A DNA stretch of 64,000 nt, taken from the NCBI GenBank assembly GCA_965205675.1, contig OZ242186.1:1632001-1696000 (forward strand), read 5' to 3'. Source of the stretch: Nitrosopumilus sp. Lineage in GTDB: Archaea > Thermoproteota > Nitrososphaeria > Nitrososphaerales > Nitrosopumilaceae. A program made the translations under genes and the position numbers. This document shows, in pieces, positions 31,337-63,763 of this stretch (positions are counted from its first letter, which is position 1; every line of letters starts with the position of its first letter). The notes below the pieces were generated by a model, which made no database searches, had not been told where the DNA came from, and saw nothing but the letters and a program-made list of their open reading frames with translations.

Positions 31337-32420
31337 TACCTCGGAGCATAATTCTTTGCAATTTTTCAAAACAAATAGCAATACTTTTTGATCAGTAGTT
31401 AGAAATAATTTCATGGACATCACAAATGACGAGTTACTCCAGGCCTACAAAAAAGAAAAAAATATTCACAAAAAAACAAGATTACATGCAATGTGTAAGA
31501 TTAAAATCAACGAATCCACAATTGCTGAAACTGCCAACCAAATGTTTTGTACCTACAATTCTGTAAGGAATTGGCTTGATTCATTTGAAAAATATGGATT
31601 GGAGGATCTCCCTCGTTCTGGCCGTCCGCCATTAATCTCACACAAAAAATTACAAAAGATAGAGCGTGCATTTAAGAAAATTTCAGACGGCATGACTCCA
31701 AAGAAACTGATACAATTCATATTTTACAGAACACGCATTACATATCATATCACTCATGTGCGTCGTTTGATGCACAAATGGAATCTAAAACCAAAGGTTC
31801 CACAAAAACTACATGTACGAGCAGCATCCAAGGATACATGCCGCAAGTGGAAAAACCGCATCATTTCACGCATAGAAAAGGCAAAAAAGAAAGGTTTTAC
31901 AGTATTTATCCAAGACGAGTCTGTATTTGTAGACGATGTGCGTCTTGGCAAAAAATACTGGACAGATGCACACCAAAGATTAATTGTATGTTGGAGAGGA
32001 TCGCACCAAAGATTTTTGGTTTATGGAATGGTGACAGATGGCAATCAAAGTTTTTTTAGATCGTATGAAAAATTTAATTCAATTGCATTTATGGATTATT
32101 TGGAAGCAGCTCGTAGAAAATTTGGAAAAATATTTGTTATCGTCGATAGAGCACCGCAACACAAAGCTAATGATGTAAAAAAATATCTGCGTAAAAACAA
32201 AGATGTCAAACTGGCATATCTTCCGAGAGGTTCCCCGCATTTGAGTATGATTGAAGAGGTTTGGAGACAGTGCAAACATGTTAATGTTGAATCAGAATTT
32301 TATGAATCTATTCATGAGATGAGGCATACAGTTATGGAATATTTTAGAACGCACAAATTTAATTTGAATATGTATTATTTTGCAAGAACAGTAAATTGAA
32401 AAGACTTATGATCTGGGGTA
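31337..32420 (+). mobile_element. IS630-family insertion sequence immediately 3' of tRNA-Ser
   Basis: TIRs TACCTCGGAGCATAATTCTTT / revcomp TACCCCAGATCATAAGTCTTT; flanking TA duplication. Confidence 0.9.
31413..32399 (+). CDS. IS630 transposase (single intact ORF)
   Basis: DLPRSGRP HTH; QDES, DRAPQH and IEEVW DDE motifs. Confidence 0.92.
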   Translation: MDITNDELLQAYKKEKNIHKKTRLHAMCKIKINESTIAETANQMFCTYNSVRNWLDSFEKYGLEDLPRSGRPPLISHKKLQKIERAFKKISDGMTPKKLIQFIFYRTRITYHITHVRRLMHKWNLKPKVPQKLHVRAASKDTCRKWKNRIISRIEKAKKKGFTVFIQDESVFVDDVRLGKKYWTDAHQRLIVCWRGSHQRFLVYGMVTDGNQSFFRSYEKFNSIAFMDYLEAARRKFGKIFVIVDRAPQHKANDVKKYLRKNKDVKLAYLPRGSPHLSMIEEVWRQCKHVNVESEFYESIHEMRHTVMEYFRTHKFNLNMYYFARTVN

Positions 32421-32646: not shown

Positions 32647-32940
32647 ATATGACATTATGATATTATTTACATCCATCACAAAGTTAAGGATATTTTAAAA
32701 AATTAACCTTTGTTTATGCGATCATCATCATTTCTAAAATCTTTATAAAATATTCAGTACTTGGGAAAGTAACTACCTGACATCTTCCAAATAGTATTGG
32801 GATTTTATTCCACTAAAGAAATCAATGATGACAATCTCAAAGATGCACTTGAGAATTTCAATTGTAATTATCCATGTGAATTGTTTTTATACATTTCCTC
32901 TCTTTCTATACATCAGGGCATGGCTTTCGCTAGAGAATGG

Positions 32941-33081
32941 TTTCAATCAAAAGATGGCAGACATGTATCCATACGAGACTATTCTCTCAATGCTATCTTC
33001 ATCCTAGTTAGGATTGTTCGCAGTTATTAGACGAGGCCTTGTCCCTCAATAATTACAACGCGACTTGCAGTCCTAACTATA
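32941..33081 (-). ncRNA. Putative bridge/seek RNA of IS110-A
   Basis: Stems TAGTTAGGA/TCCTAACTA and GAGG/CCTC frame loop segments TTGTAATTAT and TCTAATA, which match the target TTGTAAT-TAT-TGGA; donor loop carries ATGGATA; RNA ends approximate. Confidence 0.8.
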
Positions 33082-34186
33082 ATTTTGTACAAATTCTCTC
33101 CTCTCCTTTAACATCCAATAAATCACCCTCAGGATCTTTGATGCACCAGCTACTGCAGCTTTGGATGATCCTCTTTTCTTTTTAATGCGATTGTAAAATT
33201 TTGTAATGTCACTATCCTTGGCATGAATTGCATGAGTGTGTATGCATTCTGTTAGAACCCATCTCAATGTCATGCTTCCCCTTTTTGTTATTCTGCCATG
33301 GTGTATTGTATCTGCAGAGTTTCTAACTGATGGTACAACTCCTGCATATGCACACAGTTTGTGGGAATCATTGAATCTCTCAATATCTGCAATCTCTGAT
33401 GCAATGACAAGCGAAGAATAATGCCCAATTCCCGGAATCGAGTTTATCAAAATTGCATCAGGATTAACTTTTACAGCAGCATACACTTTGGAATTAATCT
33501 CTGCAATCTGTAAATTAAGGTGGCTGATTTGTTGCAAGAATCCGTCTATTCTGTAATCTCCTAGTGCCTTGAGTCTTCTGTTGTATGTTTCAGTGAATGT
33601 AACTCCTGGAATCCTGATTCCTTCCTGTAACAATATTCCATGAACTGAATTCTTGACAGATGTTCTCCATTGGATTAGTTTTTTCCTATATCTTACAAGC
33701 TGTCTTTGTTGTACAATCTTTTTGTCTGGAACATAACATGTGGCAATGTATCCTCCTCGTAAAAGATCTGCCAATATCTTGGCATCAATCTTGTCTGTTT
33801 TCTTTTTTGATGTAGCAATTGCCTTTGTCAAATATGGGTTTGAGAGTGTGACGTTTTTGTATCCCAAAGTATCTGTGAGAAATCGATACGTGTCATACCA
33901 GACTGATGAGGATTCCATTACAATATTTGCAGAAATTGGTATTTTTGCAAAATGCTTTTTTATGGATTCATGCGTGTTATCCACTTTGTCGTTTTGTAAT
34001 ACTTTGCCTGCATCATCCATTTATTACTTGAAGAAACTTCTTGTGCAGGTCAATGCCCACAAACATGCCTTTCTTTGGATTTTTTCTAATCTGTTTGTTT
34101 GTAATCTTTTTTGGAGCCGAGTATTTACGAACCTTGGAACTAGATTCATTTTTTATGCTATCTGATTTCCTTGCTTTCTTATTCAC
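33073..34186 (-). pseudogene. IS110 DEDD recombinase of element A, one frameshift near 34022
   Basis: VGIDLHK, VMES and KTDKIDA (DEDD); IPGIG, AYAGVVPSVRNSA, GRITKRG; GTG start inside the subterminal IR. Confidence 0.88.
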
Positions 34187-34263
34187 ATATCCATGTGAAT
34201 CCCTTTTAACTATTGTCGGTATTTTTGCCATATTAATTACAGCTTACGCTAATACACTCATAC

Positions 34264-34408
34264 TTTCAATCACAGATGAAACCAGACACATATCCATTCG
34301 GGGTTCTCCCCCAGTACCATCTTCATCCATTTATTAGGTGAAACCGCGGTTATAGTTTCGAGGTATTATGCATCCTCAATGTGAAAACGCGGCCAAACTC
34401 CTAACTGT
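34264..34408 (-). ncRNA. Putative bridge/seek RNA of IS110-B
   Basis: Same scaffold as the A RNA; loop segments TTTTCACAT and AACTATA match the target TATTCACA-TAT-AGTT; donor loop ATGGT / ATGGATA; RNA ends approximate. Confidence 0.8.
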
Positions 34409-34421
34409 AATGTTTTACAAA

Positions 34422-35514
34422 TTATTGATGACATTGAATAAATTCTCTCCTCTCTTTTAGCATCCAATAAATGACACGCAATAACTTTGATGCAGCAGCA
34501 ACTGCTGCCTTTGAGGTCCCTCTCTTTTTCTTAATGCGATTATAAAATTTTGTAATGTCGCTATCTGGTGCGTATCTAACATGTGCATGAATTGCCTCCA
34601 CTAGCAACCATCTTAGCATGGTGCTTCCTCTCTTTGTAATTCTTCCGTGATGTATTGTATCTGCAGAATTTCTCACCGATGGAACAATCCCTGCATATGC
34701 ACATAACTTGTGAGAATTTGAAAATCTACTAATCTCTGCAATTTCTGAGAATATGCTCAATGCAGTGTATGGTCCAACTCCAGGTATTGATGTCAAAATA
34801 CACACATCAGGATTATCATTTACCATGCGACGTATCATGGAATCTATCTTTGCAACCTCCTTTTTGTGAAATTTTATGCTTTGTAGGTACGAATCTATTC
34901 TATAACTCTCCAATTTTCCAAGTGCACGTATGTGTTCTGAGGAAAATGGTGTTGCTTTGATATGGATTCCCTCCTGTAGTGTAATACCATGTATGGAATT
35001 CTTCATCTTTACAATGATGCGCACAATCTTGTGTCGATGTCTTACAAGCTGTCTGTATTGCACAATTGTGTGATCTGGCACAAATGATTCTGCAATGTAT
35101 CCCTCCTCGTAGCAAATTTGCAAGATGGTACGCATCAATTTTATCAGTCTTTTTGAGTGATGATGCTATTATCTTTGTGTTGTATGGATTAGATAGTATA
35201 ACATCAAGATGTAATTTGTCTGTCATGTGTCTATAAAGGCCATACCAGACAGATGATGACTCTAAAACATATTTTGCGTTCTTTGGAATTTTGGATGTAA
35301 TTTTGCTAATAGCAGAAAAATCACTGGAAATCTTTTTGTTAAATAATAATTTGCCAATCTCATCTACTGCTGCCACCTGTACAGAGTTCTTGTGAACATC
35401 CAATCCTACAAACATCAAATATTTTTTTTCAGGAAGGGTAGTGTGTTTGTTTGCATTTCTTACTTTCTTGATACGAATGCAAGTACCATCTAATTTCCTA
35501 GCTGATTTTGGCAC
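34422..35514 (-). pseudogene. IS110 DEDD recombinase of element B, +1 G frameshift near 35100
   Basis: VGLDVHK, VLES, KTDKIDA; IPGVG, AYAGIVPSVRNSA. Confidence 0.88.
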
Positions 35515-36768
35515 ATATGGTTATAGTTATTGGATTTGTGTGATTAATAGAACAAATATTTCCCAACGTACAATTTGCAATAATCCATGTGTTAAACAAA
35601 ATCAAAGGATAGAAAAAATACAAAAACAGGACAGTCGGATTGACACTGCATGTCCTTGGTCTGAATTTACCAACACATGCATAACCTGTCTCTATTCCCA
35701 CCTTCTGCGATACTGGTCCTAGATTTGCCAAATGTTTTTTGATATCTCTGCGCTTTTGATATTTGTTGCAAAAACCAGATACTGGTCTGTGGGATTTGAT
35801 TTTGTAGGTTTTGGATTTGGCAAGATAACTAGATTAAATGATTCAACATGACCAGACCCTGAATGAATCCTGTACTCAGATATTGATTTACGGTTCCCCT
35901 CAACATATTGTATTATTGCCTTTTTGATTTCAGGTGTCTTTCTTGCCGGCATGATGAAATGTGTGTTGGTTTTGCTTTAGTTCATGAATTGTTCCAGTTG
36001 AGAAAAACTCTCTATCCAACAGAACTTGTTTTGTTGCAATGTTGTTTCTGGTGACATCGCCAAATAATTTACGCACGATATCTGCTTTAGAGTTGTTTTT
36101 TCTAATTGGTACACGCCAATTTGTGCCCTACATGATTTCTCTACACATTGAATTGTTCCATACCCTTCAAACGTATCAGTGCCATTTTTGGGTCTTGATT
36201 TTATCAGATATTGTGAATCTGTTTTGTCATACCTTGGGATAATGTGTTTGTCAATTGCAACAGTTACTGGATGATTCAGCATTCCCAATTTCTTTAGGTG
36301 TGTAATTGTTTGGTCAATTCCATCAGATAATGCAACAATCATTTTCTCTTGTGGTATTTTTGCAATCTGCTTTCTAATCCAAGAGCCTGATGAAATGACA
36401 CATTCAGTCCTTATCTTCAGTTTATTTGCAGTTGATTCAGAATAACAGTTACCAAGACAACATTCCATGATGAAATGATGAATGTCCTCTGAATTGTATA
36501 TGGCATTACTTTTTTGTGAGCAAGAAAACAACAATGTTGTGCACATTATTTTAGCAATATTTGCAAATACTTGAATTGTTGAATTTCTAATGTGTGCAAA
36601 ATCAAAATTATGATTCACATTTGATGGAGCAGCATGCCTCCATCAAGCTTTTTCTATCCAAATTTGTGGCGTTGTTGATCAAATGATTGTTAGTTTGTGA
36701 TCTAAATTGGATTATTTTCCCAAGTACTGGTATAGAATATGGGACAAGATAAAGGCTCAGTTGGGGTA

Positions 36769-36842
36769 TGGGCCCGAAGGGCTTCGATCCCTTGGCTCAC
36801 CGGTTATGAGCCGGTTACTCTACCAAGCTGAGTTACGGGCCC
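36769..36842 (-). tRNA. tRNA with CAT anticodon, most likely tRNA-Ile2 (agmatidine-modified)
   Basis: Cloverleaf; CCGG-CTCATAA-CCGG anticodon arm; GGGCCC acceptor stem typical of archaeal tRNA-Ile rather than Met. Confidence 0.85.
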
Positions 36843-37595: not shown

Positions 37596-37671
37596 GTTCC
37601 AGTGGTGTAGACCGGTCAAGCATTTTGCCCTTTCAAGGCAAAGATCCCGGGTTCAAATCCCGGCTGGAGCA
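37596..37671 (+). tRNA. tRNA-Glu(TTC)
   Basis: Cloverleaf; TTGCC-CTTTCAA-GGCAA anticodon arm; GGTTCAAATCC T arm. Confidence 0.95.
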
Positions 37672-37701
37672 CTAAGATTTATTTACTTATGATAAAGTTT
37701 T

Positions 37702-63569: not shown

Positions 63570-63763
63570 TAATGTAACATGCAATCAAAAAATTCTATTA
63601 TAATTTCTAATAATGTCTACCAGTTTTTATCAACAATACAAGTTAATTTTTTTGTAACTAGCAGAAGTTGTTTTGTATAAAAAGGTATGTTTCATTTTGG
63701 ATCAAAATCTGAAAAAAATTATTTTTGTAAAAGACTTAATAGGATAACGTCAAAAAAACGATC

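Follow-up and report, generated by a model that had tools for sequence, protein, structure and literature searches.

How an insertion sequence (IS) comes to lie at the very tip of one of its own relatives is the question raised by a nest of mobile elements in a 64,000-nt stretch of contig OZ242186.1 from the ammonia-oxidising archaeon Nitrosopumilus sp. (positions 1,632,001 to 1,696,000 of the forward strand; hereafter the window, in which position 1 is the first letter). In this nest, an IS110-family element, B, occupies the left end of a sister element, A, which itself sits in an ISH3-like element. We conclude that B is very probably an IS1111-type element whose downstream RNA, of the bridge RNA or seekRNA type, is programmed through its first loop to match the left tips of its sisters.

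Anatomy of the nest

All of the nested elements lie on the minus strand and, read on that strand, the coordinates given by an earlier reading of the letters (the sequence-only reading) were confirmed. In 5′ to 3′ order, the strand carries the start of the ISH3-like element (36729), ATA (35530-35528), ACT (35527-35525), ATA (35524-35522), B, ATA (34190-34188), the body of A, ATA (32871-32869), and the rest of the ISH3-like element to 32755. The nest is three deep: B in A in the ISH3-like element. The boundaries of B were set by comparing its 8 full copies in the genome with the empty sites at copies of A alone. B occupies 34191..35521, or 1331 bp without the core. Its left end, ACCATATGTGCC (35521-35510), is preceded by ATA, ACT, and ATA, and its right end, TTCACATGG (34199-34191), is followed by ATA and TGTGAAT (34187-34181). 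The filled site reads ATA-ACT-ATA-[B]-ATA-TGTGAAT, in which the ATA core is duplicated (left copy, 35522..35524; right copy, 34188..34190), as compared to a single ATA in the empty site.

Element A reads ACT-ATA-TGTGAAT...TTCACATGG and is itself bounded by duplicated ATA. Its body (32872..34187) begins with TGTGAATAAG, has its GTG at 34186-34184, and ends in TTCACATGG at 32880-32872. The displaced left tip of A, ACT (35525..35527), was identified from A-only copies, which read ATA-ACT-ATA-TGTGAAT, and from the empty host site, which lacks the ACT. B is located six bases inside the left end of A (the three tip bases plus the ATA core) and 4 nt upstream of A's GTG, cutting the body of A off from its three-base tip. 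The DNA identity of A and B is only ~70%. The proteins of A, B, and a further element, D, are 57-59% identical pairwise (57% for A and D), and we regard the three as different elements of one family.

The Pfam domains DEDD_Tnp_IS110 (PF01548) and Transposase_20 (PF02371) were found in A and in both of the frames into which the transposase gene of B is split. Domain matches in Pfam and NCBIfam placed the DEDD/RuvC-like domain in the N-terminal frame (34900..35514; GTG at 35514-35512) and Transposase_20 in the C-terminal frame (34422..35138). A and B matched the NCBIfam model NF033542, 'IS110 family RNA-guided transposase', with 172.9 and 202.3 bits (cut-off, 140). The IS1111-group motif G--P----S(G/A) is described as ending in SG, TG, and occasionally TA (PMC11187229). 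The translations contain GVVPSVRNSA in A and GIVPSVRNSA in B, whose SA ending is close, not exact, to the defined motif. In A, B, and D, the non-coding region between the stop codon and the right end is ~230 nt long versus 7-8 nt between the left end and the GTG. The subterminal inverted repeats of A are ATGTGAAT, 7 nt from the left tip, and ATTCACAT, 2 nt from the right end; the ends of B share only ATGTG / CACAT. These are short by comparison with the 7-17 bp quoted for the group (PMC11208160). For both A and B, empty and filled sites revealed a duplicated short core and an uninterrupted target. Judged by these features, the layout of the two elements is that of IS1111-type elements as described in PMC11187229 and PMC11208160.

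Site specificity of B

The genome that contains the window (G000) is a single contig of 2.01 Mb. Searching it with B by BLAST returned 8 full copies, 1 copy interrupted by an IS630-like element, 1 chimera, and several fragments. At all nine intact right ends of B, the sequence continues as ATA-TGTGAATAA, and each continuation is the left end of a sister (8 of the A type and 1 of D). Specifically, the right end of B is followed by a full A in five cases, by A fragments of 118, 252, and 179 nt in three, the last being cut by a further IS, and by 206 nt of D in one. This D segment is 98-99% identical to the left end of D-only copies. The D-only copies read GTA-ACC-ATA-TGTGAATAAAC, and the copy of B in D has the D tip, GTAACC-ATA, upstream and D sequence downstream; B therefore sits in D as it does in A. 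B is always oriented head to tail with its host element, and the outer flanks of the nine filled junctions vary, with at least 7 upstream contexts.

The empty form, ATAACT-ATA-TGTGAATAAG, was found at six A elements without B (5 full copies and one 196-nt fragment), and two further B-free fragments of A differ just upstream of the empty-site word. The A-only copy at genome position 815086 occupies a paralogous ISH3-like host at the same position as the B-A pair of the window and therefore shows the site of B directly in its empty state. Across the 2.01 Mb, there are 10 occurrences of the empty-site word AAC[TC]ATATGTGAA, each at an unoccupied sister left end (6 A, 4 D). B's own left end (TGTGCC) is unused as a target in this genome although it carries ATATGTG. 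Based on these searches, the only targets of B in this genome appear to be other IS1111-type elements, A and D.

No B was found in a sample of 60 relatives, in which the only related elements were 64-79% identical (G015, G018, G031, G036, and G056). Further genomes were reached via loci fetched with the protein of A (77 loci, mostly from Nitrosopumilus metagenome-assembled genomes). One of these, G061, has three copies of B with 96% nucleotide identity, all in A-like left ends of two sequence variants. Their open frame is intact at 365 aa (363-aa product). Apart from the frame break, the N-terminal product of the window copy is 100% identical to this product over 137 aa, and the C-terminal frame is 99.1% identical to the G061 protein over 225 aa. 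A second genome, G062, has one relative of B (88-89% nucleotide identity) in a D-like left end. Finally, in a contig of public run X4, an A left end adjoins a right end of the D type, resembling the one carried by the G061 form of B. The same site habit in G061, G062, and the X4 contig therefore excludes misassembly and indicates that the habit is conserved. The sequence-only reading had described B as a separate element of the IS110 family in the left end of A and had named unrelated flanks at other copies as the observation that would count against it. The empty and filled sites and the boundaries derived from them agree with that description, and the flank was a sister left end at all nine intact right ends as well as in G061 and G062.

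Two irregular sites were noted. A contig of run X6 that ends at window position 34187 has a B-type right end and ATA-TG, followed by ACTGAATATT... instead of TGAATAAG; it may represent one more variant of a sister left end, or a different target from some other organism. Extra ACC-ATA units precede the left end of B (ATAACT-ATA-ACC-ATA-ACC-ATA-TGTGCC) at G000 positions 63665 and 1407688 and at G061 locus L145. These units could be footprints of excision at the second ATA in the left end of B and re-insertion.

A predicted two-domain RNA with target and donor loops

We aligned the 175 nt downstream of the transposase genes of A, B, D, and 24 other distinct family members (27 in total). The alignment consists of a constant scaffold with two hypervariable stretches, and RNAalifold folded it into two domains, each made up of a helix, an internal loop, and a hairpin. 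In B, the first domain, which holds the target-binding loop, spans 34333..34405, with helices P1, P2, and P3 around the internal loop. The second, assigned to donor binding from the consensus fold and its covariation with the element ends, spans 34274..34328. For the 24 kept pairs in the 27 sequences, 98.3% of the cells are paired, and 8 pairs have changes on both sides (compensatory). Moving the partners by 1-3 columns as a slid control reduced pairing to 29-55%, and shuffles never reached the observed pairing, number of pairs changed on both sides, or covariation score. The count of further pair types was not above that of the shuffles (298 of 500 shuffles). A search of 32700-35700 against Rfam at E <= 1 yielded no known family and two chance matches, to a fragment of a long non-coding RNA and to U6, far below the gathering score.

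Throughout the family, the 5′ side of the first loop is antisense to the last core base or bases and the right flank, and the 3′ side has the sense sequence of the left flank and the core, followed by the three bases with which the element itself begins. In B, the 5′ guide UUUUCACAU (34379..34387) matches, in antisense, 8 of the 9 bases formed by the final core base and TGTGAATA in the left end of the sister. The 3′ guide AACUAUAACC (34348..34357) is the sense of AACT (target), ATA (core), and ACC (the first three bases of B). Its AACUAUA stretch (34357-34351) corresponds to AACT-ATA, and the guide matches at 10 of 10 positions at A-type sites when the ACC is included and at 9 of 10 at D-type sites (AACC-ATA). 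The relative in G062 has the 5′ guide UAUUCACAU, which matches at 9 of 9. The target-binding loop of A (33022..33058) has a 5′ guide, UUGUAAUUAU (33058-33049), that is antisense to ATA-ATTACAA, and a 3′ guide, UCUAAUAACU (33031-33022), that is the sense of the left flank, ATA, and ACT; in D, the 5′ guide is UUAAACAUAU, set against ATA-TGTT.... The last triplet of the 3′ guide appears handshake-like, by analogy with the handshake guides described for IS621 (PMC11208158). Thus, two claims of the sequence-only reading, that the RNA of B has the same scaffold as that of A with different guides and that these guides match the site in the A end, stand after comparison of the 27-sequence fold and the guides.

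The agreement between guides and flanks was evaluated in a collection of 76 distinct rows. The 26 distinct 5′ guides matched their own right flanks at a mean of 6.87 of 9 bases versus 4.69 when permuted, and the 16 distinct 3′ guides gave a mean of 7.52 of 10 versus 5.88; in neither case did any of 20,000 permutations score as high.

The second loop covaries with the ends of the elements. In B, AUGGU is complementary to ACCAT of the left end, and AAUGG-AUA-UGUG is the sense of ATGG of the right end, the core, and the first four bases of the target. Among types with a readable right end, a donor loop with AG (AAUAGAUA) occurs with CACATAG in 6 of 6 and a loop with GG (AUGGAUA) occurs with CACATGG in 24 of 25, such that the G/A variant of the right end agrees with the loop in 30 of 31. 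Similarly, of 15 AUAG types whose left tip is readable, 14 (11 plain and 3 composite) have ACT, and AUGG occurs with ACC in 6 types plus 2 that are B itself behind a host tip. The T/C variant of the left tip agrees with the donor loop in 20 of 21, plus these 2 B-in-host cases. Judged by these pairings, the two-loop logic of the A, B, and D RNAs is that of bridge RNAs.

Proposed reaction

In the reaction that we propose, the RNA would be made, bind the transposase, and direct the recombination of a circular form of B. The circle, with the junction ...CACATGG-ATA-ACCATATG..., would recombine at the ATA three bases inside a sister left end. The 5′ side of the first loop, UUUUCACAU, would pair with the top strand of A-TGTGAATA, and the 3′ side, AACUAUAACC, with the bottom strand of AACT-ATA, its last three bases matching B's own ACC in a handshake-like manner. 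The second loop would match B's own ends (ATGG-ATA and ACCAT). The predicted product is ACT-ATA-[B]-ATA-TGTGAAT, head to tail with the host element. Insertion in this manner would spare the tip read by the host's own RNA, as ACTATA is kept, so that B-A is probably still movable as a composite and can recombine into the chimeras, B′, described below. The circle-junction word was absent from the genome assembly, and neither a joint skipping B alone nor the circle joint was found among the Logan contigs of the public runs; these contigs break at repeats and drop rare forms, and the result is therefore no evidence against excision or circles.

By eye, TATA-like boxes are present on the minus strand in the right ends of A (TATAAAAA, 32885-32900) and B (TTAAAAGG, 34203-34212). 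In a circle junction, boxes placed by eye in this way would lie 22-23 nt before the GTG, which would fit an archaeal junction promoter and a leaderless mRNA. In the B-A tandem, the TATA-like box of B is 17 nt before the GTG of A, again by eye.

Module swaps, chimeras, and the fate of A

The copies of B in G061 share their target loop with the window copy, whereas their donor loop and right end are of the D type (AAUAGAUA with CACATAG); their target is unchanged. A more extensive exchange is seen in the B′ chimeras, in which the left end and gene of B (95-99% nucleotide identity) precede an RNA and a right end that are both of the A type. G061 has 6 full and 2 partial copies, and the window genome has 1 degenerate copy. 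B′ starts with ATA-ACT-ATA-ACC-ATA-TGTGCC, that is, the tip of A and then the left end of B, as expected if a B-in-A nest underwent recombination between its two genes. The loci are G000:C1:754596-755696 (L009) and, in G061, L140, L145, L150, L080, L081, and L108. The frame is intact (365 aa) in L140, L145, and L150 and broken in the window genome.

The three fully examined B′ loci of G061 have three different pairs of flanks, and the examined loci have at least 4 different 5′ guides, several of which correspond to the flanking DNA: UUGAAAUUUA with ATA-ATTTCAG, UUGUAAUUUA with ATA-ATTACAA, and UUAGAGUUUU with ATA-ACTCTTG. We interpret the B′ set as guide reprogramming on a nearly constant protein background, which is central to what the sequence-only reading had supposed. 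Based on the intact frames and varied flanks in G061, the split left end therefore works with an A-type RNA.

These data bear on whether B stops A from moving. In the tip, the A-type donor loop reads approximately CTAT and no more, and this stretch is kept after insertion of B. The five B-carrying copies of A share single-nucleotide polymorphisms (SNPs) at A positions 106, 109, 112, 232, and 233, none of which is found in five A-only copies, and they are found in three distinct target contexts of the A type and in one recombinant. This pattern would fit B-A moving as one unit with the ends of A; gene conversion spreading B and the adjacent 233 nt would fit as well. The congruence of the B and A phylogenies, judged by eye from SNP tables, was undecidable given the homoplasy and recombination. 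We think that B does not necessarily kill A. Indeed, the earlier prediction that the insertion should immobilise A was not upheld: the mobile B′ elements keep the split tip, and the B-carrying copies of A form an SNP group of their own at three A-type contexts.

In a broader reading, B would be a dedicated hyperparasite and hitch-hiker of its own family, which keeps the tip of its sister, rides as part of a two-gene, two-RNA composite, and spawns B′ by recombination. We put this forward tentatively and consider it doubtful. If it is true, such nesting would naturally drive the shuffling of target loops, donor loops, and transposases among bridge-RNA elements.

Alternative explanations

Several observations weigh against the view that the RNA of B targets sister tips. 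Eight of 62 guide-flank rows match at 5 or fewer of 9 bases, one B′ subtype (L080 and L108) is poorly matched to its own flank, and the 5′ guide of B spans one core base versus three in A. The target is invariant in the B lineage, in which the specific covariation amounts to one guide position (U here and in G061, A in G062); the support from guides therefore comes mainly from the family. The transposase frame of B is broken at GGAGGGATAC or a variant of it in 9 of the 10 copies that hold this site and, if the break is real, B is unable to act alone here. Finally, the SNPs common to the five B-bearing copies of A mean that several B-A loci may descend from one insertion. This last point is the basis of an alternative in which a single ancestral insertion of B was followed by hitch-hiking with the ends and RNA of A, gene conversion, and segmental duplication. 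Consistent with such a history, the shared SNPs, which are absent from the five A-only copies, are all located no more than 233 nt from B, the flanks of two B-A loci are the same on either side, a third locus being a flank recombinant, and the B′ chimeras indicate that a left end with ACT-ATA ahead of the left end of B is mobile. However, B is also present in D, which shares 57% amino acid identity with A, between the D tip GTA-ACC and D-specific sequence; in A variants without the shared SNPs (39251 and 62324); in two A variants in G061; and in a D-like element in G062. Moreover, the guides of B match the site. Hitch-hiking may add to targeting but cannot be the sole cause, and we judge this account very improbable.

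It is likewise highly unlikely that the site is chosen by protein recognition of ends, in which case the transposase would bind the subterminal repeat (ATGTGAAT / ATTCACAT), the sister end would serve as a pseudo-end, and the RNA match would be incidental. The target does overlap a sister subterminal repeat that resembles the ends of B (CACATGG, ATATGTG), and end recognition by IS1111-type elements is said to be unsettled (PMC11187229). Nevertheless, in A, D, and ~20 other members of the family, quite different targets, none of them an IS, are specified by the same two loop positions, the left end of B is passed over as a target despite its ATATGTG, and a guide base is changed to give a perfect match in the G062 relative. 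As for an assembly artefact, arising from false collapse or a false tandem of similar IS110 copies, the genome is extremely rich in IS copies, and its consensus is not flawless, the frameshift in B being contradicted by contigs of three public runs. Nevertheless, A and B share only ~70% DNA identity, and the junction was found at nine loci with different outer flanks as well as in the G061 and G062 assemblies and the X4 contig; the probability of this explanation is negligible. A tandem-dimer or misassembly reading was thus rejected on the recurrence of the junction at nine loci and in separate assemblies, and RNA-directed insertion into sister tips is the reading retained here.

Broken reading frames

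In the window copy, an extra G at 35101-35103, within GGAGGGATAC, splits the transposase frame of B into 204 and 238 aa. Several lines of evidence suggest that this break is an artefact of the assembly consensus or is very recent. The tenth copy lacks the extra G, reading GGAGGATA, and is cut at the same spot by the IS630-like element. Contigs of runs X1, X2, and X4 also lack the G and are otherwise identical to B over 333-520 nt. In the corrected frame, substitutions among the copies of B are 13 synonymous and 13 non-synonymous, as compared to an expectation of ~22% synonymous (p = 0.0015; 0.026 if 30%). Finally, the copies in G061 are intact. Based on these data, the break is probably one or the other. 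Mobilisation in trans of a non-autonomous B was considered and was not built on, given this assessment. A programmed frameshift is unlikely as a +1 shift would be required and the sequence has no slippery motif.

The interrupting element is an IS630/Tc1-like element of 1102 bp with a TA duplication (G000:C1:442702-443801), inserted in B at GGAGGA-TA. The genome has at least 7 further near-identical copies of it.

The frame of A is intact in 2 of 10 full copies (373-aa frame, 371-aa product; G000 617129 and 1109374). The other 8, including the window copy, have a common 2-nt deletion and two neighbouring substitutions (window 34016-34030). The deletion disconnects the first catalytic Asp from the remaining protein, and both forms occur in contigs of the public runs. 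In the window copy, the main frame (33073..34020) encodes 315 aa, and the N-terminal 57 codons, including that for the first catalytic Asp, lie in another frame. The frame of D is intact in 3 of 4 copies.

Comparison with known systems

RNA-guided target choice is established for IS110 and IS1111 elements (PMC11187229; PMC11208160; PMC11208158). Like B, the IS1111 seekRNA and bridge-RNA elements (ISEc11, ISKpn4, and ISPa11, with the mechanism known for IS621) encode the DEDD and Transposase_20 domains, have a long non-coding region downstream of the transposase gene and short subterminal inverted repeats, and duplicate a short core at both junctions. In the seekRNAs described in PMC11187229, as in the RNA of B, the top-strand match is 5′ of the bottom-strand match and the two overlap at the core. 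The bridge RNAs described in PMC11208160 and PMC11208158 likewise have handshake-like bases and a further loop that serves the ends of the element itself. Unlike the known IS1111 seekRNA elements, B, known here from sequence alone, has a host in the Nitrosopumilus group of archaea, an RNA without an Rfam match, a core of (N)TA/ATA, and a target that is the left tip of a sister rather than a repetitive extragenic palindromic (REP) sequence, an attC site, or a chromosomal site.

Partridge and Hall reportedly described in 2003 the insertion of the IS1111-type elements IS4321 and IS5075 into the inverted repeats of Tn21 (cited in PMC11187229 and PMC11208160). Like B, these elements have as their specific target the end of a different transposon, which is entered at a single position and in a single orientation. 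Their victims are Tn3-family transposons unrelated to the invader, whereas the victim of B is a sister IS of the same family, and the target of B includes the tip read by the victim's own RNA, unlike that of IS4321/IS5075.

A second parallel is the IS110-family element ISPpu9 of Pseudomonas putida with its ssr9 module, for which several kinds of circle are described, with the modules alone or together, and one module is read as a selfish passenger that uses the transposase (PMC12288879). This arrangement resembles the proposed B-A composite and the B′ chimeras. It differs in that its passenger is a gene for a small RNA rather than another complete IS, and in that the end of the partner is not targeted; moreover, its circles are experimental and that of B is proposed.

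A literature search identified no IS110/IS1111 element aimed at a sister and no such elements in Nitrosopumilus; archaeal or IS-targeting examples may exist in the target logos and bridge-RNA tables that supplement PMC11187229 and PMC11208160. The mechanism itself is known, and the targeting of transposon ends by an IS1111-type element is known in principle. The novelty appears to lie in the target, which is the sister tip that is read by RNA, in the archaeal host, and in the natural swapping of modules.

IS110/IS1111 recombinases are being developed as programmable genome-writing tools, and little is known of how guides evolve naturally. The elements described here constitute natural experiments: one transposase lineage (95-99% DNA identity) with at least 4 target loops, one target loop with two donor loops and right ends, and one lineage with its loop set on sister tips. 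They make it possible to test the exchangeability of target and donor loops, the minimum number of left-tip bases needed by a donor loop, and the ability of a transposase to serve a foreign RNA. In addition, they suggest that targeting of one transposon by another can arise by guide change alone, and they extend the bridge-RNA architecture, with covariation support, to archaea of the Nitrosopumilus group.

The outer host and neighbouring features

The ISH3-like host of A (32755..36729) is ~1316 bp long without A and B, has terminal inverted repeats CAGTACTTGGGAAAG, and is split by A and B between 32868 and 35531. The best match of an intact paralogue was to the NCBIfam ISH3 family NF033541 (E 7e-40, 137 bits), below the cut-off of 225, and the only Pfam match of the host element was DDE_Tnp_1. 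The empty A site is uninterrupted in two ISH3-like paralogues, CACAAATCCA-ATA-ATTACAATTG, and, in contigs of two public runs, position 32867 is contiguous with 35527, as in an empty A site.

Only 2 of 10 full copies of A lie in an ISH3-like element, and all 10 are followed by ATA-ATTA(C/T)A. The guides of A call for xxA-ATA-ATTA(C/T)A, and the genome contains 101 copies of the 9-mer ATAATTACA. Thus, of the chain proposed in the sequence-only reading, from B to A to ISH3, the nest itself stands, and the tier programmed specifically for ISH3 does not, the target of A being a short AT-rich motif.

The IS load of G000 is very high for an archaeal genome of 2.0 Mb, with many copies nested or truncated. 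It includes dozens of ISH3-like elements (65-94% identical), ~15 copies of a 1245-bp IS, and ~15 copies of a 1150-bp IS, and there are 29 matches to each of two IS110-family domains.

Adjoining the nest on the plus strand is an intact transposase gene (31413-32399; 328 aa) that had been taken for ISH3-like. Its DDE_3 and helix-turn-helix domains identify it as IS630-like instead. The end of a related IS630-like element lies directly upstream of a truncated copy of A at G000 1838968. On the other side of the nest, a tRNA-Met gene (CAT; 36769-36842, minus strand) lies 40 nt from the end of the ISH3-like element, with a tRNA-Glu gene (TTC; 37596-37672, plus strand) beyond it.

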